From Candidatus Woesebacteria bacterium (lineage in GTDB: Bacteria; Patescibacteriota; Microgenomatia; UBA1400; PJMF01): a DNA stretch of 64,000 nt. Under the pieces are notes generated by a model that was not told the DNA's origin, ran no database searches, and was given only the letters and a program-made list of their open reading frames with translations. Positions 23,568 to 35,504 of this stretch are shown here, one piece after another. The stretch is from contig JASFHL010000005.1 in NCBI GenBank assembly GCA_050123235.1, positions 30,695 to 94,694 of the forward strand, given 5' to 3'. The translations under genes and the position numbers were made by a program. Position 1 is the stretch's first letter; every line of letters begins with the position of its first letter.

Positions 23568-24365
23568 TTAGCTCCCCACACTTGAATATTTTTTCAAGCT
23601 CCATTTCCAAGCCAACAGACTAAAGCTAAAAAAGCCAATACCAATCAAAGTACTTGCAATCAAACTTCGGCTGGTATTAAGATTCATCAAGACTTGTGCA
23701 GGGACAGTAATCATGATGCCAATAGGTATTAAAGAGAAAAGTAAATCACGAATAGGTTTGAGATAAATGTCAACCGGCAAGCGACCAAATAAGGTCAAAT
23801 CTCGATAAACCATAATAGCATTATCTACTTCTGTAGTGACTACCCCTAAGCATAAAACCAAAATATGAAAAGCTAGGACTATCAAAAAACTATTGATTAA
23901 GAGTAGAAAATAGCCTAAAGTTGAGACTAAACTGATTTTGACATCAAGTTGGCTTAAGATTAATAAACTAATAATGCTAATAGGAATCAAAAAAATGACA
24001 TCATTGATATCAGGTTTAGCAAAAAGTGAACGCAAAAGAGGATTAACTGGTTGACTTAGATAAAGATCAAATTTTCCATAAAGCACTTTTTCACGAAATA
24101 CATAAACTCCTCTTAAAAAAATTTGTGCTATCAAATCAACTAAATTAAAAGTCAAAAAAAAGACAATCAGTTGATCAGTTGTATAAGTAGCAAACTCTCT
24201 TGTTTGCTTCTTGATGATGAGTAAAAATAAAAGCATCATGCCAAAACGAAAAATCTTGCCAATCAAAAACAGCAAATTAGACCAGCGGTTGATAAAAGTT
24301 AGCTGTAGTTCATTGCTAGCTAAGATTCTCCAAACTTTACAGTGTTTTTTTAATTCTTTTAGCAT
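23568..24365 (-). CDS. ABC-2 family transporter permease
   Basis: 265 aa; ~6 TM helices; adjacent to a second permease and an ABC ATPase on the same strand. Confidence 0.7.
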   Translation of the reverse strand: MLKELKKHCKVWRILASNELQLTFINRWSNLLFLIGKIFRFGMMLLFLLIIKKQTREFATYTTDQLIVFFLTFNLVDLIAQIFLRGVYVFREKVLYGKFDLYLSQPVNPLLRSLFAKPDINDVIFLIPISIISLLILSQLDVKISLVSTLGYFLLLINSFLIVLAFHILVLCLGVVTTEVDNAIMVYRDLTLFGRLPVDIYLKPIRDLLFSLIPIGIMITVPAQVLMNLNTSRSLIASTLIGIGFFSFSLLAWKWSLKKYSSVGS

Positions 24366-24388
24366 TAGTTTAAAGACTGGTAGTTATT

Positions 24389-25180
24389 TTATTGCCCCAC
24401 GGCACTGTAATTTTTCATTCCTTTTTGCCAAATGATTTTTAAAAATATTGTTAAGACTATTACCCAAATTGAGCCGATTAGGACCTTTGATAGGCTTTGA
24501 TTAAAACTAAATCTTTCCAAAAAAATTTGTGTTTGTACAAAAGTCAGATAAGGAAAAGGAGTAAGATAAATAATTTTTTGCAGCAGTGAAGGAAGAACAT
24601 CTAAGGGAAAAAGTCTACCAGAAGTAAATTGAATGATCATGAAAAATAAAAACCTTGGTGCCCAAGTTTCTGGACTCCAAAAGCCTATGCTGCCAAATAA
24701 AAGCATAATGATAAATAAAGTGATGAATCCAAGCAAAATTGAAATAATAAAAAAGAGAAGACTGCTAAGATTAGGCCAGTAGAATTGAGGCTGAAAAATG
24801 AGATAAAGTAATGAAAGTTCGATAATAGCGAAAAAAATATTTTTGGCCTTATCTGCCAAGTCTTGACTTAATAAAAAAGCAAAAATATTAACTGGCCTGA
24901 TTAATAAATAAGAAATTCTACCATTATAAATATTAGTTGCAAGATCTTGTATTGCACTCGAAAGGATCAAGCTTTGTAAAATGCTAGTTAAAAAAATATA
25001 ACTGAGCATATCTTCAGCTTGATAATGAAAAAACTGTTGCTGTTTTGTAAAAACGACTAACCAAAGTGAGATAGAAATGAGTGAAGTTAAGAACATTCTA
25101 AAACGCCACATCAAGGTATTTAAACGATAAACTAATGTACTTTGCCATGAAATTCTAAGTATAGTTAAATATTTATTCAT
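24389..25180 (-). CDS. ABC-2 family transporter permease
   Basis: 263 aa; multi-TM; its start overlaps the ATPase gene stop (operon). Confidence 0.7.
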   Translation of the reverse strand: MNKYLTILRISWQSTLVYRLNTLMWRFRMFLTSLISISLWLVVFTKQQQFFHYQAEDMLSYIFLTSILQSLILSSAIQDLATNIYNGRISYLLIRPVNIFAFLLSQDLADKAKNIFFAIIELSLLYLIFQPQFYWPNLSSLLFFIISILLGFITLFIIMLLFGSIGFWSPETWAPRFLFFMIIQFTSGRLFPLDVLPSLLQKIIYLTPFPYLTFVQTQIFLERFSFNQSLSKVLIGSIWVIVLTIFLKIIWQKGMKNYSAVGQ

Positions 25181-26160
25181 TGTTTCTTTTGGGCAAAAAC
25201 TTCCCTGATAATAGCTTCAATTGGAGCTTCTTCGATATTGAGATCATGAATTGATAATTCATTAAGCATTTTAGAAGCCATTGCAGTAGCTTTTTCTCTT
25301 GGCACAAGGATGGTGATTTTAGGAAATTCAAAGTCTTTTATTTGCCCAAATTTAGCTAGTTTTTCTTTTGGAGTTTCTCGACTAAGTAGCAAAGAGATAA
25401 TCTTGTTTCTAGCAAATTTGTGAATAATATCTTGCAATTTCCCATCAAACATTTTTTTCCCTTGATCTATAATAATTGCTCTAGGGCATAATTCTTTGAC
25501 ATCATCCATGTAGTGACTGGTTAAGATCACTGTAGTTTCAAATTCGCGATTATAATCTTTGATAAAATCACGCAAGGTTTTTTGCATTAATACGTCCAAA
25601 CCAATGCTAGGTTCATCCAAGAACAAAACTTTGGGGCTGTGCAGTAGAGCAGCGATCAGCTCGCATTTCATGCGCTGCCCAAGTGATAATTTTCTAACTT
25701 GGATATTAAGAAGATCAGCAACATCAAGTATTTCTACCAATTTTTTTAGTGTTTTCTTGTATTTTTGATCGCTGATTTCATAGATAGCTTTATTGAGTTC
25801 AAAGCTCTCAATAGCAGGCAAATCCCACCAAAGTTGGTTTTTTTGTCCCATGATTAAAGCAAATTGCTTTTGAAATTCGGTTTTTCTATCCCAAGGATTG
25901 AAACCTAAGACTCGTACTTGCCCTTCAGTTGGGTAAAGCAAACCAGAAAGAATTTTTAAAGTTGTAGTTTTTCCTGCTCCATTTTTACCAATAAAACCAA
26001 CAATTTCTCCGCTATCAATTGTGAAAGAGATATCATCAACCGCTTTGACAATCTCGTATTCTCTATGCCAAAGAGATTTAATTGATCCAGTCAGGCCGGC
26101 TTCTTTACGGTAAACCTTAAAATATTTTTTTAGTTGATCAACTTGAATAACGGGTGGCAT
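25177..26160 (-). CDS. ABC transporter ATP-binding protein (exporter type) with ~100-aa C-terminal extension
   Basis: Walker A GKNGAGKTTT, signature LSLGQRMK, Walker B LFLDEPSIGLD, H-loop TSHYM. Confidence 0.9.
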   Translation of the reverse strand: MPPVIQVDQLKKYFKVYRKEAGLTGSIKSLWHREYEIVKAVDDISFTIDSGEIVGFIGKNGAGKTTTLKILSGLLYPTEGQVRVLGFNPWDRKTEFQKQFALIMGQKNQLWWDLPAIESFELNKAIYEISDQKYKKTLKKLVEILDVADLLNIQVRKLSLGQRMKCELIAALLHSPKVLFLDEPSIGLDVLMQKTLRDFIKDYNREFETTVILTSHYMDDVKELCPRAIIIDQGKKMFDGKLQDIIHKFARNKIISLLLSRETPKEKLAKFGQIKDFEFPKITILVPREKATAMASKMLNELSIHDLNIEEAPIEAIIREVFAQKKQ

Positions 26161-26668: not shown

Positions 26669-27055
26669 TCATATATAATCCAATTTATTAAGCATAATAA
26701 TTGAACTACCAAGCATATCATAAGCTACATCTCTCAAGTTAGCTGTTCTTCCTGCTACTAGCGATTGATGAAATTCATCACTCAAGGCATAAAGGAAGCA
26801 AATGAATAGAGGCAGTAGATAAAGTTTAGGCTTGGACTCTTTAATCTTGATTTTAATTAATCCTTGAAATAAAAGTAAATATAAAATTGCATAAACAAAA
26901 ATATGTGCTAGTTTCTTAAAAAGAAAATCTAATAATGAAATACTAAAACCAGGTAAAATTTCTCTATTTGATAAAAAGAAAATTAACAATGCCCACAACA
27001 TGGAAGGTAGAAAAGCAGTTAAATAAGTTTTAGTTGATTGTAAAAAAACCTTCAT
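26669..27055 (-). CDS. VanZ-like small membrane protein
   Basis: 128 aa; 4 TM segments; W..LIFFLS and other motifs reminiscent of the VanZ-like family. Confidence 0.45.
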   Translation of the reverse strand: MKVFLQSTKTYLTAFLPSMLWALLIFFLSNREILPGFSISLLDFLFKKLAHIFVYAILYLLLFQGLIKIKIKESKPKLYLLPLFICFLYALSDEFHQSLVAGRTANLRDVAYDMLGSSIIMLNKLDYI

Positions 27056-28421
27056 AAAGATTGATTAATGCAACAAATAAAAAAATGCTGCCTCCGATTA
27101 TAACACTGATAATATAAGTTTTTTTCTTAGTTTGCTTAGTAAAATAAAGTTTCCCAAAATGACTACTATAACTATTATTTTTTTTAAGATCAAGATTTAA
27201 TTTGCTAAGGTCAATTGAATAGCCAAGTGCTAGAGAGTTGAATTGCGATAATAAATTCTCATTTTTTTGAACAAATTGATTGACTAAACTCTGTTCCTTC
27301 AGAGGATTTGGATCTGAAAATAGTTCTTGATTCTGCTCTAAACTTAAATCATCAATCGTTATTTCTTCATCAGATTCTGAATCATTATTTATGCTAGGAG
27401 TAGGACTAAGATAAACATTAGGCGTACCTCTAGTAGTTTGGCTGCTTTCTAGCCATGAACCAGCAAAAAAAATATAACTATGGTCTTTATTACAATCAGC
27501 AAACTCAAAAAAATCTTCAACTTCTAGCTTGGGATCTTTTAGAATAACTTGATCGCCATCATTATTAAGTTTGTTATAGAGTTCAATGGTAAAAAAACTC
27601 AAGGCATTAATAATTTCATCGGAAAAGTTAAAAATTAAATTTTTTTCATCCCAGATTGACCACTGATTAAGAGCAATGGCTTGTTGGTTGGGGTTATAGA
27701 TTTCTATCCATTCTTTTCCTTCAGAGGGGCAAGCCATAATTTCAGAAAGTTGTAAATTAAAGGCAGGTGAAGGAGTGGAAGTAGCTGAGGGAGTGGGAAT
27801 ATTAGTTGGAGTTGGTAGAATAGAGGGGCTGGGACTTACTGTCAGGCTTGGATTCATTCCAGTTGGGCTTGCTTGGGGACTTGGGTTAGCTGAAGGACTG
27901 AGGGATGGTTCTGGGGTAGAGCTAATAGAAGTAGTTGGGCTAGGAGAATGATTCTCTTCTCCTGGAGTGGCTAAACTAAGCTGAAAATCACCTTCAGCAT
28001 TTGGAATACGGGCAAAACTATAGTTTTTCTGAGAATTTTGATAAGACATCTGATCGACTAGCTCATTATCCTGATTTTTTAAAATTACAGCATCTCCAGA
28101 GTTATTTAGTTTACTTGAAAGTGAAATTAGCAAATATTCTCCTGGAGAAATAGATTCTGAGTTAAAAGAGTAAATAATGGAAGGACTAGCAAGCTCATCC
28201 CACAAAGTCCAGCCCTGCAGTGACAGAGTCTCTAGAGGATCAGCACCCTCTTGCTCTGTTGGAAGATAGAGTTCAACCCACTCTTCCTGTCCTGAGTCGG
28301 GTTGAGGATATACTTCATTGATGACAAGTTGAGCTTGTACCAATATTGGGAAAAAAAATAAAAAAATCAGCAACAGAAACAAGATAATAATTAAGTCAGC
28401 AAGCTCGAAGTTTTTATTCAT
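27030..28421 (-). CDS. secreted/membrane-anchored protein with two lamin-tail (LTD) domains and a Pro/Ser/Thr-rich linker
   Basis: N-terminal signal/TM segment; two LTD-like modules (LVINEVYPQP...EWVELY and LSEIM.CPSEGKEWIEIYNPN); PST-rich linker; C-terminal TM. Confidence 0.6.
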   Translation of the reverse strand: MNKNFELADLIIILFLLLIFLFFFPILVQAQLVINEVYPQPDSGQEEWVELYLPTEQEGADPLETLSLQGWTLWDELASPSIIYSFNSESISPGEYLLISLSSKLNNSGDAVILKNQDNELVDQMSYQNSQKNYSFARIPNAEGDFQLSLATPGEENHSPSPTTSISSTPEPSLSPSANPSPQASPTGMNPSLTVSPSPSILPTPTNIPTPSATSTPSPAFNLQLSEIMACPSEGKEWIEIYNPNQQAIALNQWSIWDEKNLIFNFSDEIINALSFFTIELYNKLNNDGDQVILKDPKLEVEDFFEFADCNKDHSYIFFAGSWLESSQTTRGTPNVYLSPTPSINNDSESDEEITIDDLSLEQNQELFSDPNPLKEQSLVNQFVQKNENLLSQFNSLALGYSIDLSKLNLDLKKNNSYSSHFGKLYFTKQTKKKTYIISVIIGGSIFLFVALINLYEGFFTIN

Positions 28422-28611
28422 TAATCATAATTTATAGTGACTTGTTTACAAAAACTGTAACTTTGAGCAAAGTGGGTTATAATACTTGGAGTTAAAGACA
28501 AAATAGAGATATATTAGAGATGTTTTTTAAGATTTTGAGCGGACTGTTAAGGATAAATATATTGTCACTGATCATTTTGTTAGGATAAAGTTTTGAAGTG
28601 AATAGTTTTGA

Positions 28612-28766
28612 ATTTACTATAGATAAATATTAGAGCGTTAAAGTGAGGTCTGGCTAAATTTATATTAGCGATGGATATACTACCGAGCTTTACCGAGTGA
28701 GCTTTGTATTTTAAAAGGAGCTATCAGATAGTAGCGAACGACTCTGATATTTATCTATAGTAAATT
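28612..28766. repeat. copy B of the ~155-bp inverted-repeat element (ATTTACTATAGATAAAT ... ATTTATCTATAGTAAAT)
   Basis: Perfect 17-bp TIR. Relative to copy A it carries a compensatory C->T / G->A pair that keeps the inversion perfect, and the internal blocks are conserved. It sits in the divergent region 60 bp upstream of tRNA-Ser. Confidence 0.8.
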
Positions 28767-28824
28767 TGATACTGTTTTCTAGTTTTACAAAATAGTAAGT
28801 GAAGAATATATTTAACATTAATCA

Positions 28825-28912
28825 GGAAGCGTCGCATAGTGGCCAATTGCACAGGATTGCTAATCCTGAGCCCTTATGGGCTTCGTGGGTTCGAATCCCA
28901 CCGCTTCCGCCA
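28825..28912 (+). tRNA. tRNA-Ser (anticodon GCU), CCA encoded
   Basis: Hand-folded cloverleaf: acceptor GGAAGCG/CGCTTCC; D-loop with AGTGG; anticodon stem CAGGA/TCCTG with loop TTGCTAA (U33, GCT anticodon, A37); long variable arm GCCC-TTAT-GGGC; T-arm GTGGG-TTCGAAT-CCCAC; discriminator G + CCA. Confidence 0.9.
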
Positions 28913-28974
28913 AACTGATAGAAATCTACACAAAATTACACTTGTTTTCTATTTTGGCGTGACTGTTGGCGTGA

Positions 28975-30057
28975 ATGTGGCGTGAATATGTTATACTAAA
29001 TAATATGTATAACCCTAAGTTCACAATTACCCCAGAAATCACTAATTGGATTGCGCAAATCGAGGCTATCAAGCAAAAAATTGATCGTTCAAAAATTTTA
29101 CCTGTTAGAGAAATTTCCCTGAGACACAGAGCTGCTATTGAATCTGCTCACAGTTCTACCAGCATTGAAGGCAATCCTCTCAATAGGAAACAGGTTGCGG
29201 CCGCCTTAGCAGGCAAAATGAATGCCTGGGAAAAAAAAGTGATCGAGGTGACTAATTACAAAAAAGCTTGGGATTGGATCTCAGAAAGAAGTCAAAAAAA
29301 ATCAGCAATTACTATCGCGGATATTTTAAAACTACATCGTTTTGTAGCTAGCAAACTCCTCCCAGAAAATAAAGTTGGTGCTTTCAGGCTAGGTCCTATC
29401 TATATTGTCGATATTATCAGAGGTGAAGATGTTGTCAGATATACAGGTCCAGATATATCGCAAATAAAAAGCTTATTACTAGAGTTGTTAGCCTGGGTTA
29501 AAAAACAAAAAAAGGTGCTTCATCCTGTGCTATTGGCGGGTATTATTCACTATGAATTTGTATCTATCCATCCATTTAGTGATGGCAATGGTAGAGTCAC
29601 TCGTTTATTAGTTAAACTCCTCCTTGATTTGTTAGACTATGACTTTCGAGGTTGTTTGGTTTTAGACATTTACTATTGGCAAAATACAAACCAGTACTAT
29701 CAGAACTTGAACCAAGCTGACAACTATTCGGATCAACGTAAAGCTGATTTAAGCAGTTGGCTCGCCTATTTCACTGAAGGTTTTTATTTAGTAAGCAAAG
29801 ATTTGGAACGAAAAATAAATTTAATCACTGCTAATCAGAATGACGAAACCATTACTTTAAATAATCAAGAAATGCAAATTCTTGACTTTGTTAATCAATT
29901 TGGACAAATAAATTTATCAGAAGCGCTAGGTATTTTACAAATACCAGAGAGAACCATACAAAGACGCTTAAAAAAATTGGTTGATAAAAATATCTTAGAA
30001 GTTGATGGAAAAGGAAAAAATACTATTTATAGATTGAATAAAATTGATCAAAGATAG
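28975..30057 (+). CDS. Fic-family protein (class-II-like: N-terminal inhibitory S/TxxxE[G/N] motif, Fic core, C-terminal wHTH)
   Basis: Fic motif HPFSDGNGRVTR (HxFx[D/E]GNGRxxR); N-terminal SSTSIEGN inhibitory-helix-type motif; C-terminal winged-helix-like region. An alternative in-frame start exists at 29005. Confidence 0.85.
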   Translation: MWREYVILNNMYNPKFTITPEITNWIAQIEAIKQKIDRSKILPVREISLRHRAAIESAHSSTSIEGNPLNRKQVAAALAGKMNAWEKKVIEVTNYKKAWDWISERSQKKSAITIADILKLHRFVASKLLPENKVGAFRLGPIYIVDIIRGEDVVRYTGPDISQIKSLLLELLAWVKKQKKVLHPVLLAGIIHYEFVSIHPFSDGNGRVTRLLVKLLLDLLDYDFRGCLVLDIYYWQNTNQYYQNLNQADNYSDQRKADLSSWLAYFTEGFYLVSKDLERKINLITANQNDETITLNNQEMQILDFVNQFGQINLSEALGILQIPERTIQRRLKKLVDKNILEVDGKGKNTIYRLNKIDQR

Positions 30058-30209
30058 GCATTCAATACCTGTCCCGAAACCTGCGTTGCCTCAATTTAAA
30101 AATTAAAATACAATTAGTTTATGTTAGATTCCTTTCCTCAAAAAGTTATCGAAAAATTTTATCAACTCATTTAACAGACAAAAGATTAAATCAACAAAAC
30201 GTCAGTGAT

Positions 30210-30500
30210 TTGCTACTTAATTTACTACAGAAAGCTGAAATCCCATTTGGACTTTTTGGATATATTCTTAAGAAGAAATCCTTGGAGGTAATTAATGAGG
30301 TGCAAGATAAAGTTTTCCATCAATGGTGGGAGCCACCCATAGTCTTACCACATCTTATGTGCGCTCTGGAAGATACTATTGGCACATCAGTTTTAGAAGG
30401 TCAAGGTCGAATCAGTAAAGATAAGATTCAATGGTGCTTAGTTTATGGAGTCAAAGGCAGTGAGGAAAAAGAAAAAGCACAACAGTACAGCAGCAACTAA
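30210..30500 (+). CDS. hypothetical protein (96 aa)
   Basis: Intact ORF between the Fic gene and the peptidase gene; no recognisable motifs. Confidence 0.3.
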   Translation: MLLNLLQKAEIPFGLFGYILKKKSLEVINEVQDKVFHQWWEPPIVLPHLMCALEDTIGTSVLEGQGRISKDKIQWCLVYGVKGSEEKEKAQQYSSN

Positions 30501-30625
30501 GTTACAAACTTAGGCTATCCTAAATTAAAGTCAGCGGCTTCGCATTTTTCAATGATTTTCTATCTATCTTTTTTCTTTTTTTTTTGTTATCTTTATAATT
30601 AGTATCAATAACAAAAAGGCCTGCT

Positions 30626-32071
30626 ATGCCAAACTTAAATACCGCTGGGGTATCAGCGGATGTCCGTAATCGTTTATTAAATTTTCTCAATAATGCTAGT
30701 AATGCTAATAGCATTGCTGGCAGTGAACCAGTCCATGGTCCAATTCTGGATGATCCTAGCACTGGCTATGGTGATAATGTGGAAGATTATGATATTGGTC
30801 AAACAGTAGCTAGAAGGATTATTCAAAAACGCAATTCTTTAGCTGGAGATCAATTCACTACTCTAAATCAACTGAATAATATCGCTCACTTTGGCCAAGA
30901 TAAGTTCAATGACCTAGTGCATACTTTTTCGCGTTATTGGGAATTGTTTTTTGCTCTTACTCTCTATGGTCAAACCACTGGTTTTTATTGTGGGGCAGCT
31001 ACGGCACAAATGATTTTAGACTTTTTACATGGCTGGGCTGGAACACCAGCTTTAACCCAAGATGAAATCTACGATATTATTCAGAATCATAAAACTGATA
31101 ATAGTTTCTACACTGACCCTGATGGACTCAGAGGTTGTTTAAATCAAGAAAGTCCGGCAGTAAATCGTTGGATTATTTTTGCTGGCAGGGACAATGAACA
31201 AGACAAAGCCTGTCGTAAAATCGCAACTAGTATGGATCTTTATGATTCACCAGCTGCTGCTTTGATTTATGACGGTGATCATTGGGTAGCAGTGAGTGGG
31301 CTTACAGCTACAGAGCGACCTTCCATGAATAAAAAATCTTTTCTAATTTACACCATTCAAATCCATGACCCAGCCGGAGGTGGCAATGTCAGAGATATTG
31401 AGTATTACAATTGGTGTAGTAATTTCTTTACTCCTAATACTTGGGGAACTACTTGGGATGATCGCTATGTCTGTGTGGTTGATCCTAGACCCCAAGGTGG
31501 AGCGAAAATAGATTTTGTCCAACCTAATTATAAAGCTAAAGGAAGAACCATGATTACTCCCAATCAAGCTAAACAAGCGGCTCAAGAAAGTTTGGATGAT
31601 TATCATCTGACTTCTAGAGATGATTATCAAAAAGCTTTGAGAAAAGCTAAGGTAGGAACACCTGTCTTGGTTAAGAATTTACGTGAAAAGCGCAAGAGGG
31701 CCTATTATTTGATACCATTTGAACGCGGTCAAAAAACTACCGTAGTGCTCATGATTCATGCTTATTATGGCAACTATTTGGGTTCTTCTTTAGTTGATCA
31801 ACCCAAAGGCTATCTCAATGTTTCTCAAAGTCGAGCCAAAAATTTAGCTGCTGATCATATTAAAAAAACCAAAGTCACTAGAGGTAGAAGCTTGACTAAG
31901 CTTAAGGCTAAAGATATAGAGAAGGCTTACTTGGTTTGGAAGCCATCTCAACAATCTTGGGATCCCTTTCAACCTATTTGGAAATTAAAAGCTAAAGGAC
32001 GAGTGCGCTATGTTAACCAGGATAAAGAAATCAGTAGCAGGCTAAAGAGAGCTAAAAAAGGCGGTATGTAG
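30626..32071 (+). CDS. two-domain protein: N-terminal ComEA-like tandem helix-hairpin-helix region + C-terminal C39-like (papain-fold) cysteine peptidase domain
   Basis: N-terminus is LNTAGVSADVRNRLLNF ... IGQTVARRIIQKR...FTTLNQLNNIAHFGQDKFNDL (HhH-like). The peptidase part has the Cys motif GFYCGAATAQMILDFLHG and His motif DGDHWVAVSGL, as in C39/C39_2 peptidases. There is no signal peptide. Confidence 0.55.
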   Translation: MPNLNTAGVSADVRNRLLNFLNNASNANSIAGSEPVHGPILDDPSTGYGDNVEDYDIGQTVARRIIQKRNSLAGDQFTTLNQLNNIAHFGQDKFNDLVHTFSRYWELFFALTLYGQTTGFYCGAATAQMILDFLHGWAGTPALTQDEIYDIIQNHKTDNSFYTDPDGLRGCLNQESPAVNRWIIFAGRDNEQDKACRKIATSMDLYDSPAAALIYDGDHWVAVSGLTATERPSMNKKSFLIYTIQIHDPAGGGNVRDIEYYNWCSNFFTPNTWGTTWDDRYVCVVDPRPQGGAKIDFVQPNYKAKGRTMITPNQAKQAAQESLDDYHLTSRDDYQKALRKAKVGTPVLVKNLREKRKRAYYLIPFERGQKTTVVLMIHAYYGNYLGSSLVDQPKGYLNVSQSRAKNLAADHIKKTKVTRGRSLTKLKAKDIEKAYLVWKPSQQSWDPFQPIWKLKAKGRVRYVNQDKEISSRLKRAKKGGM

Positions 32072-32137: not shown

Positions 32138-32434
32138 TTAATTTTTCTCTATCCTGATTGCCCTTCCCAGTACAATTGCTTTAGCTATTTTTTTATAAGC
32201 TTTATCTAGAATTCTAGCAAAAGTTGGTTGAGAAATATTCATTTTTTTGGCACAGTTAATTTGATCTAAATTGTCAAGATCATGAAGTTTTAAAGCTTCT
32301 AGTTCGTCAGTCAATAAATGGATTTCTTGGAGTTCTCTTAAGGGGACACCCCTGGGTTTAAAATAATAAACATTAGGTTTACAGCTCAATCTTCTGGGAA
32401 TTTTTGGTCTTGGCATATGTACTTGTATTAACAA
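32138..32434 (-). CDS. DUF134-family predicted DNA-binding protein (sigma-70 region-4-like HTH)
   Basis: 98 aa; MPRPK.PRR....P....FKPRG.P...L....L..DE.EA.KL.D...L.Q...A..M.ISQ.TF.R.L..A..K.A.A. Confidence 0.6.
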   Translation of the reverse strand: MLIQVHMPRPKIPRRLSCKPNVYYFKPRGVPLRELQEIHLLTDELEALKLHDLDNLDQINCAKKMNISQPTFARILDKAYKKIAKAIVLGRAIRIEKN

Positions 32435-32866: not shown

Positions 32867-33172
32867 ATGAAAGAAACTAATCGAGGTCTAGAGTACTTGC
32901 CACCACCAGTAAGACTTAATCCTAATCTTGTATTTACCAGAGAAGTGACTGTTTTTGCTCAGGGTTTAAAAAGAGTCCAAAACTCTAAAGAACCAATTTT
33001 ATTTCAAATAGATAGAAATGGTTTAGCTTGCCTGACTGATGGTAACCATCGAGCACATTTAGCATGGCGTAAGAGAGAAGCTTTATGGGGTCAATGTATT
33101 GGGAGATTAAATTTTGATGTAACTACTAATCCAGATTATAGACCTGTAAGTCGGCTCAAAATTATTCGCTAA
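32867..33172 (+). CDS. hypothetical protein with ParB/sulfiredoxin-like DG.HR motif
   Basis: 101 aa; LTDGNHRAHLAWRK resembles the ParB-like nuclease-domain motif; weak. Confidence 0.3.
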   Translation: MKETNRGLEYLPPPVRLNPNLVFTREVTVFAQGLKRVQNSKEPILFQIDRNGLACLTDGNHRAHLAWRKREALWGQCIGRLNFDVTTNPDYRPVSRLKIIR

Positions 33173-34161: not shown

Positions 34162-34377
34162 ATGCCAAAAGTAATTTGTCATACTTTTCTTTGTACAACA
34201 GTTGGAGAGCCCAAGATTGATACTAGCAAAAATCCTGCTGATGAAGTTTTTACAGAGTTGAGATGGCTGACTATTGATCAAATTCTGGATTCAGAGGATA
34301 TTGTAATTACTGATAGTCTTAGAGAATTGCTTTTGGAATTTAAAGAATCTATTAGCAAAACTAAAAAACAATTATGA
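34162..34377 (+). CDS. hypothetical protein (71 aa)
   Basis: Intact ORF; its stop overlaps the next gene start (atga). Confidence 0.3.
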   Translation: MPKVICHTFLCTTVGEPKIDTSKNPADEVFTELRWLTIDQILDSEDIVITDSLRELLLEFKESISKTKKQL

Positions 34378-35504
34378 AATTTATTCTAAAATCTTGCTTC
34401 ACTATTCTATTTTTAATTGTCTTACAGTTTTTAACTGTCAATCCTGTTGCAGCGCAGACTGAGGAAGTTTCTGAGCCTCAATATATGGAAGGTAAAGTGA
34501 CCAAAGTTGTTGAAACTGGACAAGAAACTTTAATGGATGACTTAGTTCCTTTTCAGCAATTAGAGATTAAAGTGACCAAAGGTCAAGAAAAAGGACAGAT
34601 CATTACAGTTAAAAATTCTGCTGCGACTATGGGCATGGGCAATGTTCAATATCAAACGTATGAACCAGGAGATAAAGTGAAAATTGTTTTCATCGAAGGA
34701 GCAGAGGGTAAACAATATTATCTTGATGGAGAGCTTAAAAAAGATGCATTGATCGCACTGCTAGTCTTGTTTGTGTTGGTGGTTTTAGTAGTAGGTAGAA
34801 TTTGGGGAGCTTTATCACTACTGGGTTTATTAATCTCTTTTATAGTTATTTTTAAATTAATTATTCCTCTGATTATTAAAGGTACAAATCCTGTTTTGGC
34901 GGCCATTATTGGCTCAGTGATTATTATCCCCAGCACTTTTTATATCTCACATGGTTTTAATAAAAAAACTCATATTGGTGTGGCCGCAACTTTTCTTGGA
35001 TTATTGATCACGGGTTTATTAGCAATTTATTTTGTTGATGCTAGTCACCTCACAGGTTTTGCTTCTGAAGAAGCTGGCTTTTTGCAAGTAGAAAAAGAAG
35101 GTGCGATGGATATTAAGGGTTTACTGCTGGCAGGGATTATTATTGCTACACTTGGTATTTTGGATGATGTCACCATTGGCCAGGCTTCAACAGTAAAGCA
35201 ATTGAAAAAGGCTAATAAAAAAATGTCTTTTTCAAAATTATTTATCAATGCTATGAAGGTTGGCCAAGACCATATTTCTTCTATGGTCAATACTTTGATC
35301 TTGGTATATTCAGGCTCTGCTCTACCTCTGCTTTTGTTATTTTTTGATAGTGAAAAGACTTTTTTGGATGTAATTGAATTGGAACTAATTGCTGAAGAGA
35401 TTGTCAGAATGTTAGTCGGTAGCATCGGTTTAGTCTTGGCTGCCCCCTTGGCTACAGTGATGGCCGCCTATGTTTTTGCTAAGCAGGAGTTGGGTAAAAA
35501 GTAG
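34374..35504 (+). CDS. YibE/F-like integral membrane protein
   Basis: 376 aa; N-terminal signal peptide, ~100-aa extracytoplasmic domain, then ~7 TM helices; architecture typical of the YibE/F family. Confidence 0.45.
   Translation: MKFILKSCFTILFLIVLQFLTVNPVAAQTEEVSEPQYMEGKVTKVVETGQETLMDDLVPFQQLEIKVTKGQEKGQIITVKNSAATMGMGNVQYQTYEPGDKVKIVFIEGAEGKQYYLDGELKKDALIALLVLFVLVVLVVGRIWGALSLLGLLISFIVIFKLIIPLIIKGTNPVLAAIIGSVIIIPSTFYISHGFNKKTHIGVAATFLGLLITGLLAIYFVDASHLTGFASEEAGFLQVEKEGAMDIKGLLLAGIIIATLGILDDVTIGQASTVKQLKKANKKMSFSKLFINAMKVGQDHISSMVNTLILVYSGSALPLLLLFFDSEKTFLDVIELELIAEEIVRMLVGSIGLVLAAPLATVMAAYVFAKQELGKK

Follow-up and report, generated by a model that had tools for sequence, protein, structure and literature searches.

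Two probably independent accessory genes, for a SoFic-type Fic protein and a predicted papain-fold peptidase with a putative helix-hairpin-helix-type head, beside a tRNA-Ser gene of a Candidatus Woesebacteria bacterium

Do the three open reading frames (ORFs) that follow a tRNA-Ser gene in a Candidatus Woesebacteria bacterium act as one toxin or defence module, perhaps carried by a tRNA-associated island, or do they only happen to lie side by side? The window analysed here is a stretch of 64,000 nucleotides (contig JASFHL010000005.1, positions 30,695 to 94,694) from a genome with a GC content of ~35%, and its host belongs to the Candidate Phyla Radiation (CPR)/Patescibacteria. An earlier note on this DNA had described an accessory module composed of a Fic protein, a 96-aa ORF (ORF B) and a 481-aa ORF (ORF C) that combines helix-hairpin-helix (HhH) repeats with a C39-like peptidase; the tRNA and all three ORFs are recovered by ARAGORN, Rfam and the ORF list (Table 1). 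With moderate confidence, the patch 3′ of the tRNA is read here not as one system but as two loci of conflict type, each a single gene, horizontally mobile and independent of the other, next to an ORF that is probably spurious. Related loci carry L-numbers below and related proteins P-numbers.

The arrangement itself is real and not a misassembly, since three separate assemblies show an identical gene order around Fic, ORF B and ORF C. Among 185,579 species genomes (one per species), scanned in a manner that detects close relatives only, a single close relative of the Fic protein is found, encoded at L009 in a Patescibacteria metagenome-assembled genome and sharing 79% aa identity. Nucleotide homology between the window and L009 is limited to positions 28905–30056, at 80% identity, and runs from the last tRNA bases to the Fic stop codon. 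The flanks are unrelated on both sides: the L009 Fic gene neighbours those of a transglycosylase-like protein and a formate/nitrite-transporter-like protein, and has no adjacent tRNA, ORF B or ORF C. This comparison suggests that the Fic gene moves alone.

The HhH-peptidase genes related to ORF C likewise occupy varied surroundings. A Fic gene, here of SoFic type, lies next to the HhH-peptidase only in the window and at none of the six other loci of the clade, several of which are contigs shorter than 5 kb. These loci present metabolic genes (L001), a TIR/SEFIR protein and transposases around a split peptidase gene (L002), a PGA_cap protein and a P-type ATPase (L003), a NACHT/STAND NTPase (L026), a cpYpsA-SLOG protein (L027) and one uninformative context (L028). 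Conflict-type neighbours are present in four of the seven contexts, each time different ones, which fits a residence of HhH-peptidases in variable or defence regions in a sample far too small to prove it. The toxin/defence-type setting put forward in the earlier note agrees with the TIR/SEFIR, NACHT and SLOG genes that often stand beside ORF C relatives. At L002 (7616–9038) the ORF C homolog is split into a 131-aa ORF, corresponding to the N-terminal module described below, and a 345-aa ORF with an 11-bp overlap, directly downstream of the SEFIR/TIR protein and with DDE transposases flanking.

A single toxin/defence module, with Fic as toxin, ORF B as an antitoxin of the AS1 type and the DNA-binding peptidase as sensor, activator or second effector, is very improbable in the light of these distributions. 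Such a module would account for three genes being adjacent on the same strand and for the placement of ORF B where E. coli Sofic has AS1, a protein of 47 aa (PMC12249575); it could also draw on L012, where an island that also holds an integrase and MazF contains a Fic gene 1.3 kb away from the gene for a protein with the N-terminal module of ORF C. The L012 Fic, however, is different, shorter and on the opposite strand, and the L009 Fic lacks both ORF B and ORF C, homology ending at its stop codon. None of the other six HhH-peptidase loci has a Fic neighbour, ORF B is without homologs among 5.8e9 proteins and atypical in its GC content at third codon positions (GC3), and the intergenic gaps measure 152 bp between Fic and ORF B and 125 bp between ORF B and ORF C. 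As judged from these comparisons, Fic, ORF B and ORF C are not a conserved three-gene system, and the module proposed in the earlier note does not stand.

The Fic protein is, by sequence, class II, SoFic-type and an ordinary member of a known family. The Pfam Fic profile (PF02661) matches at E=9.4e-17 with 62.1 bits against a gathering cut-off of 24, the active-site motif HPFSDGNGRVTR fits HxFx[DE]GNGRxxR, and the N-terminal STSIEG segment fits [ST]xxxE[GN]. In phmmer alignments, these motifs coincide with the inhibitory TVAIEGN and the catalytic HPFIDGNGRTSR of FICD, as well as with the equivalent segments of 4RGL (SLAIENN), and E65 is the predicted auto-inhibitory glutamate. The PADLOC SoFic model PDLC03963 aligns over the full length (E=2.2e-48; aa 30–355 against profile positions 37–352 of 361), as does phrog_5978, a phage protein family (E=3.4e-45), and relatives at ~30% identity occur on many plasmids. 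Relatives in the PDB are 4RGL (the best solved one, E=9e-23), FICD and EcSofic (9VJC). The NCBIfam SoFic equivalog NF046030 gives 56.8 bits against a cut-off of 550, so far below it that the protein is not an ortholog of Shewanella SoFic, and the Fic_N match is sub-threshold (17.6 versus 26.7 bits). Residues 292–356 draw sub-threshold matches to Penicillinase_R, HTH_DeoR, HTH_24 and MarR_2, and also to Csa3/CasR-type models of winged helix-turn-helix (wHTH) domains, and both the full-length SoFic model and EcSofic 9VJC residues 160–348 extend over this region. Collectively, the Fic motif, the inhibitory motif and the class II, auto-inhibited type of AMPylator with a C-terminal wHTH, all named in the earlier note, agree with the profile match, the full-length SoFic match and the FICD alignment, the HTH matches themselves staying below threshold. 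A conserved alternative start, ATG at 29005 (MYNPKF), gives a 350-aa form, and one assembly annotates the gene in this way.

Sofic defends against phages as a single protein, presumably by abortive infection through AMPylation, and is toxic in E. coli in spite of its inhibitory helix; AS1, the 47-aa product of the downstream gene, neutralises it in E. coli H397 (PMC12249575). By analogy with this characterised system, the canonical active site of the window Fic would transfer AMP from ATP onto a target protein, the N-terminal inhibitory helix with Glu65 would keep the enzyme in check, and the protein would most probably be a latent toxin that halts growth upon phage infection. Three direct repeats of GGCGTGAMT, just upstream of the annotated Fic start and overlapping it, are the only matches to this pattern in 64 kb (0/100 shuffles reach three) and are kept upstream of the L009 Fic within a conserved leader of ~70 bp. 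The triple repeat is a candidate operator, probably one for the wHTH of Fic itself. At L009 (7989–9082) the Fic gene is divided into ORFs of 121 and 262 aa by a frameshift in an A-run, which may reflect gene decay or an assembly error.

ORF B, present as the earlier note had it, is an orphan. Searches of Pfam, NCBIfam, PADLOC and PHROGs return no match, and the sole match among 5.8e9 proteins is ORF B itself. No obvious ribosome-binding site precedes it, and none of the 42 background genes reaches its GC3 of 0.33 (z=2.3). A role as a conserved antitoxin was considered and rejected: ORF B is without homologs, and no ORF B and no conserved small ORF follows the Fic gene at L009. It is a doubtful and probably spurious gene.

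ORF C, identical to the database entry 'hypothetical protein PVJ09_03350', falls below both relevant Pfam gathering cut-offs when searched alone (HHH_3, E=1.3e-3; Peptidase_C39_2, PF13529, E=1.7e-3 and 19.4 bits against a cut-off of 24), so the motif-based call of the earlier note needed a test at the level of the family. A word-indexed search of 5.8e9 proteins gives 27 relatives, and an exhaustive profile search of 1.84e9 representatives gives 2,506 family members at E<=1e-3, of which 516 reach E<=1e-30, each representative standing for a 50%-identity cluster. Where ORF C itself stays below the cut-off, 19 of 24 aligned relatives match Peptidase_C39_2 at E<=0.01 (best 9.8e-8). Across 149 diverse representatives, the predicted catalytic positions are retained in 121/134 (Q116), 123/133 (C122), 145/149 (H219) and 145/149 (D or N at 248), together with W220 (148/149) and P249 (148/149), and the Q/C/H/D-N tetrad is invariant or nearly so in the family alignment. 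The Cys in YCGAATAQM and the His in DGDHW, singled out in the earlier note, are thus C122 and H219. Its description of an HhH plus C39-like protein is upheld in that both parts appear to be present; 'C39' holds at the C39_2-like level and not in the sense of bacteriocin-processing C39.

The family members are mostly ~400 aa long and match end to end without the N-terminal 100 residues of ORF C. Their database names do not go beyond 'hypothetical' or 'C39 family peptidase', and archaeal (Methanoculleus) proteins are among them. The nearest relatives, 11 full-length or near-full-length homologs with 52–64% identity among 5.8e9 proteins, are encoded on contigs of 39–59% GC, and none is named Woesebacteria. 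One of the homologs, P0003 (63% identical), occurs on a different contig of JGI sample 3300042731, the same sample as one assembly of the window organism, so at least two carriers of an HhH-peptidase share one habitat.

The AlphaFold2 (AF2) model of ORF C is well defined (mean predicted local distance difference test, pLDDT, 84.9; predicted template modelling score, pTM, 0.85), with disorder only in residues 34–52. In Foldseek searches of the PDB, the peptidase-type matches are all papain-fold, namely staphopains and the phytochelatin-synthase-like Alr0975 (target template modelling score, TMt, ~0.5); whole-chain scores are diluted because the model has several domains. Sequence and profile searches of the PDB with ORF C, its N-terminal module, its C-terminal domain and the body of the L012 protein yield chance-level matches only, and a match to V-ATPase subunit G in these searches was set aside as a coiled/charged-helix artefact.

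The N-terminal module of ORF C (N-module) appears to be a portable HhH-type domain. It is present in only about 11 family members (52–64% identity) and, at 50–60% identity, heads at least four other, unrelated bodies: Kelch/galactose-oxidase-like proteins, a ~380-aa body with conserved Cys/His/Asp motifs at eight metagenomic loci, and at least two more. The contigs that encode these fusions span 38–70% GC, and in all fusion proteins the module starts at residue 1. It was traced by an alignment-based metagenome scan; a k-mer protein search with the N-module alone and a scan of viral contigs give no match. Structurally, the module comprises an LNTA...IAG segment, a disordered insert (residues 34–52) with a conserved GPxxDD loop, and DIG...FGQDKF hairpins. 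HHH_3 (PF12836) matches positions 22–60 in five different fusions at E 9e-5 to 0.015, scoring 19.2 bits in ORF C and 22.9 in the best fusion, where the cut-off is 27. Modelled separately with AF2, the module reaches a pLDDT of 83.9, and its best fold match in the PDB is the tandem HhH of TEFM (prob 0.80, TM 0.53/0.64, E=0.25, not significant). The interpretable PDB fold matches are all HhH domains (TEFM, LigA, Hef/XPF and NusA), none of them significant, and the PDB profile search with the module finds nothing. Taken together, the HHH_3 positions and the fold matches suggest an HhH-type domain with an insertion of ~45 residues and an invariant GPxxDD...G loop. The 'ComEA-like' label given earlier therefore survives as a resemblance at fold level and not as HHH_3 membership (19.2 versus 27 bits).

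Several fusions of the N-module have features of their own. At the eight loci L011–L018 (e.g. L012, 5968–7413 and 7451–8164), a 481-aa protein joins the module to the Cys/His/Asp body, and in six of the eight a protein of ~237 aa, unassigned to any family, is encoded directly downstream in what looks like an effector/partner pair. A 'transglutaminase-like' label for this body was dropped, as it relies on NCTDSA...YHEVAW...DGCLxVD motifs seen by eye and finds no support in Pfam or the PDB. The N-module protein at L012 (5032–11645) is part of a mobile island that also encodes a fragment of an rve integrase, a Fic of 269 aa, a tyrosine integrase and the toxin MazF; upstream lies the gene of a 1200-aa DUF6519/beta-helix protein. 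The Kelch-type proteins P0021 and P0022 carry a strongly hydrophobic insertion of ~45 residues (…TICAIVTILLFALFGILAGIISLLVCTVIVIVTVIV…) in the beta-propeller region, which is not found in P0018.

The C-terminal part of ORF C, residues ~305–481, makes up more than one third of the protein, is as conserved as the peptidase domain and was overlooked in the earlier description. The best PDB match of the whole ORF C model in Foldseek is to the C-terminal PepSY domains of YpeB (E=3.7e-4, prob 0.85), with a low TM score because the model has several domains, and the fourth-ranked BFVD match is a phage PepSY-domain protein. PepSY (PF03413) and Inhibitor_I69, the Spi/streptopain-propeptide family, each match two of 12 sequences (best 0.003 and 0.005, respectively), all below cut-off. 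These fold and profile matches all point to protease-propeptide or inhibitor folds, none of them decisively. Stand-alone homologs of 133–152 aa are encoded downstream of family members at L024 and L025, with a 10-bp gap, and nearby at L004; free-standing genes of this kind next to peptidases give the layout of a protease with an inhibitor related to its own regulatory domain. Most proteins of the family stop one to three residues past a conserved Gly: a Gly lies within the last four residues in 120 of the 149 representatives, 33 end in GG plus 0–2 residues, and ORF C has its KKGGM tail at 32054–32068. By analogy, the C-terminal domain is proposed to be an intramolecular inhibitor or chaperone. 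The conserved 237-aa partner of the L011–L018 clade, a 202-aa gene in L001 and ORF B were considered as further relatives of this domain, and BLAST shows no relationship.

Table 1. Positions in the window of the tRNA gene, the three ORFs and their parts, and positions of stand-alone homologs of the C-terminal domain at related loci
Feature	Coordinates	Strand	Basis or remark
tRNA-Ser (anticodon GCU), intact	28825..28912	+	ARAGORN; Rfam RF00005, 58.2 bits
Three direct repeats GGCGTGAMT (28956-64, 28968-76, 28979-87)	28956..28987	+	just upstream of and overlapping annotated Fic start
SoFic-type class II Fic AMP-transferase (predicted), 360 aa	28975..30057	+	Pfam, PADLOC, PHROG, PDB relatives
Fic inhibitory-helix motif, S61-T-S-I-E65-G66	29155..29172	+	fits [ST]xxxE[GN]
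Fic active-site motif, aa 199-210	29569..29604	+	fits HxFx[DE]GNGRxxR
Fic C-terminal wHTH domain, aa ~292-356	29848..30042	+	sub-threshold HTH matches
ORF B, 96 aa, TTG start	30210..30500	+	orphan, doubtful gene
ORF C, 481 aa	30626..32071	+	HhH-type N-module, C39_2-like peptidase, C-terminal domain
N-module of ORF C, aa 1-102, portable HhH-type domain	30626..30931	+	HHH_3 matches, AF2 fold
Predicted papain-fold C39_2-like cysteine peptidase domain, aa ~105-290	30938..31495	+	family-level profile matches, residue conservation, fold matches
Predicted catalytic residues Q116, C122, H219, D248	30971-3, 30989-91, 31280-2, 31367-9	+	family conservation
C-terminal alpha/beta domain, PepSY/I69-propeptide-like, aa ~305-481, ends KKGGM	31538..32068	+	fold and weak profile matches
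Stand-alone C-domain genes	L004 10296-10754; L024 7210-7611; L025 2734-3135		without terminal Gly tail

In keeping with the 'no signal peptide' of the earlier note, ORF C lacks an N-terminal hydrophobic segment (maximum Kyte-Doolittle value 0.37 over the first 40 windows), and among 123 representatives with a recognisable Cys motif 77 have fewer than 28 residues before the Cys and hence no signal peptide. The main rival to the cytoplasmic mechanism makes ORF C an extracytoplasmic or lytic enzyme, that is, a cell-wall endopeptidase or a secreted zymogen with a PepSY propeptide, whose ComEA-like head binds external DNA. PepSY and ComEA domains, like C39_2 endolysin domains, are typically extracytoplasmic, and binding of external or incoming DNA could matter for a DNA-scavenging CPR episymbiont. 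Signal- or TM-like N-termini (TM, transmembrane) occur in about 24 of the 149 representatives, and the family members P0013, P0023 and P0024 carry signal peptides. In Methanoculleus (L022/L023, 6001–10817), a serpin gene comes after two tandem signal-peptide-bearing paralogs of the family with 85% mutual identity. Among viral proteins (BFVD), the fold of the ORF C model is matched best by an actinophage endolysin peptidase (E=7e-5, prob 1.0), and the literature describes Peptidase_C39_2 for the most part as the catalytic domain of endolysins (e.g. PMC8223927). This alternative is nevertheless unlikely: neither a signal peptide nor a TM segment is present in ORF C or in most of its family, every fusion starts with the N-module at its first residue, no holin, secretion or competence genes are adjacent, and the family occurs in archaea that have no murein. 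A tblastn search of ORF C against phages and plasmids, the N-module scan of viral contigs and PHROGs give no match, and a phage or plasmid origin of ORF C was dropped on these grounds.

The tRNA-Ser gene is the left boundary of the accessory patch. No integrase or recombinase is present among the called genes within ±10 kb, nor does the tRNA 3′ end recur anywhere in the 64 kb when as many as 3 mismatches in 23 nt or 2 mismatches in 15 nt are tolerated, the repeat search being likewise negative; the earlier note had also seen neither an integrase nor an att duplication. The GC content of Fic (z=-0.44) and ORF C (z=+1.28) and the codon distances lie within the background range of 42 genes, only the GC3 of ORF B being high. 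With no att repeat, integrase or compositional anomaly, tRNA-associated island status is unproven, and the island that the earlier note had suggested shows no hallmark.

It is doubtful that the patch is a decayed integrative element, once inserted at the 3′ end of the tRNA-Ser gene with Fic as its tRNA-proximal cargo. The Fic start does lie 63 bp past the tRNA, and integrases or transposases are found close to relatives of Fic and of ORF C. Right where the homology begins, L009 carries TCACAACG-TTCCGCCA, which agrees with the final 17 nt of the tRNA in the window at 14 positions; 35 of 5000 shuffles reach this score in a restricted test, but 390 of 2000 do so when the whole tRNA is set against the whole intergenic region, which is not significant. 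The remnant is a weak hint at an old tRNA-linked insertion. No direct repeat of the tRNA 3′ end, with 3 mismatches allowed, lies within 35 kb downstream, and the missing integrase and the native-like composition also speak against such an element.

At the opposite end stands the view that these are ordinary core genes of the lineage and that their adjacency to a tRNA is without significance, for which there is little likelihood. It would agree with a base composition (GC and GC3) and a codon usage that do not leave the range set by 42 background genes, with the lack of mobility genes and with housekeeping surroundings (ribosomal cluster, ABC transporter and HU). Core genes would not be expected to show the distribution found, in which the 11 close ORF C homologs have contigs of varied GC (39–59%), varied neighbours and no Woesebacteria name among them, and the one close Fic relative in the species-level scan lies elsewhere in its genome, in another context. 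These distributions support the accessory status of both Fic and ORF C, as the earlier note had proposed.

The reading of two independent single-gene loci, together with the mechanism that it attributes to ORF C, has to be weighed against several points. The sample in which Fic never accompanies an HhH-peptidase consists of the six other loci of the clade, several on contigs under 5 kb, and at L012 a different Fic gene does lie close to an N-module protein. The native-like composition of the window genes gives no sign of recent transfer. For the HhH as for the PepSY assignment, the matches are below threshold or not significant, the ORF C family is biochemically uncharacterised throughout, and the extracytoplasmic habit of PepSY and C39_2 endolysin domains, along with the signal- or TM-like N-termini of part of the family, runs counter to a cytoplasmic enzyme.

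With these points in the balance, ORF C may be pictured as a cytoplasmic, latent papain-fold cysteine peptidase. The N-module would tether the peptidase to DNA or act as a common targeting handle, the Q116/C122/H219/D248 centre would catalyse, and the C-terminal domain with its Gly-Gly-Met tail would block the active site or regulate it in cis, a task that the stand-alone C-domain from an adjoining gene would take over in trans in relatives. The domain anatomy is observed, whereas AMPylation and toxicity of the Fic protein, DNA binding, auto-inhibition, the cytoplasmic location and any defence role of the genes are what we infer from it, and confidence in ORF C as a cytoplasmic, DNA-tethered, self-inhibited cysteine protease is moderate to low. 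A bolder proposal, which we hold to be rather improbable, is that the N-module is an undescribed portable domain marking interchangeable effector enzymes, each tending to have an adjacent partner or inhibitor, and that ORF C is a DNA-sensing, self-inhibited protease acting as a single-gene defence or abortive-infection effector. If true, ORF C would represent a new class of DNA-tethered latent protease immunity, in a CPR bacterium.

In terms of novelty, the Fic protein adds little, extending SoFic-type toxins to a Woesebacteria genome and contributing a candidate operator. ORF C appears to be a new domain architecture inside a known superfamily, in a large and apparently uncharacterised family, and no paper in the library searched brings its features together. 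It points to about 2,500 clusters of probable papain-fold peptidases, presumably cytoplasmic for the most part, with a built-in inhibitor-like domain, and the occurrence of this domain both built in and separately encoded suggests a testable zymogen/inhibitor logic. The N-module, in turn, is a head common to unrelated enzymes across very different lineages; if it binds DNA or targets its enzymes, it would be a new modular way to direct them and might define a new single-gene defence architecture. For annotation, the locus teaches that the adjacency of a tRNA and a toxin gene does not make a system.

The wider surroundings of the patch run from a ribosomal protein/rpoA cluster through an ABC transporter, HU, VanZ and an LTD protein (27030–28421) to Fic, ORF B, ORF C and DUF134 (32138–32434), with a YibE_F gene further on (34374–35504). 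A long, near-perfect hairpin of ~185 nt (28597–28780, plus strand; arms 28601–28635 and 28742–28776) lies between the LTD gene and tRNA-Ser. It has a minimum free energy as RNA of -65.2 kcal/mol (z=-7.0 versus shuffles), is the sole copy in the window and matches no Rfam family; located just upstream of the tRNA promoter, it could be an element resembling a miniature inverted-repeat transposable element or a structured RNA. An Rfam scan of the window and a permissive scan of 28400–30700 find nothing beyond the tRNA. Past ORF C, a 101-aa ORF (32867–33172, plus strand) contains LTDGNHRAHLAW, by eye like the DGxHR motif of ParB/sulfiredoxin-like nuclease domains, and has no match in Pfam or PHROGs.

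Among known systems, the window Fic stands closest to SoFic/Sofic (Shewanella, PDB 3EQX/3ZCN; EcSofic, 9VJC), with which it shares the whole architecture: the N-terminal [ST]xxxE[GN] helix, then the HxFx(D/E)GNGRxxR core, and at the C-terminus a domain of wHTH type. It is followed by a small ORF, as E. coli Sofic is by AS1 (PMC12249575). The solved SoFic proteins are nonetheless distant from it (E ~1e-6 across about 90–190 aa), and its host is a CPR bacterium. An anti-phage role of the window Fic would be one by analogy. The likeness of ORF B to AS1 is one of position only, ORF B being twice the size of AS1 and without demonstrable similarity. With FICD/HYPE and other class II Fic proteins such as 4RGL, each residue of the inhibitory motif and of the catalytic loop can be aligned, whereas FICD, a eukaryotic enzyme of the endoplasmic reticulum, carries no wHTH but TPR repeats and a membrane anchor.

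ORF C shares with the Peptidase_C39_2 proteins the order Q...C...H...D/N, and its model has the fold match to the actinophage endolysin peptidase. It differs from the endolysins in having no cell-wall-binding domain, phage context or signal peptide, and from the Pfam family in its extra HhH head and a 180-aa C-terminal domain outside Pfam coverage. Peptidase C39 proper (PF03412), the double-glycine leader peptidase of ABC exporters, is likewise a papain-like Cys/His peptidase, and the frequent ending of the ORF C family in Gly or in Gly-Gly plus one residue may recall its Gly-Gly specificity. PF03412 matches none of 24 family members, however, and at the window there is no ABC transporter fusion or adjacency and there are no bacteriocin genes, the ABC transporter at 23568–26160 being on the other strand, 4.5 kb away and of the ABC2_membrane_6 type. 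The N-module resembles the ComEA-type HHH_3 domain and the N-terminus of TEFM (PDB 5OL9) in its LNTA start and its two hairpins of the G-hydrophobic-G type (DIG, FGQ), but never exceeds the Pfam cut-off, carries the ~45-residue insertion and heads cytoplasmic-looking enzymes rather than a membrane-anchored DNA receptor. Finally, the C-terminal domain invites comparison with SpeB/Spi (I69), the PepSY propeptides of M4 peptidases and YpeB. The similarity is weak, the domain is C-terminal and not an N-terminal propeptide, and inhibition would be by analogy; the likeness lies in the fold and profile matches and in the stand-alone homologs encoded downstream, just as spi adjoins speB.

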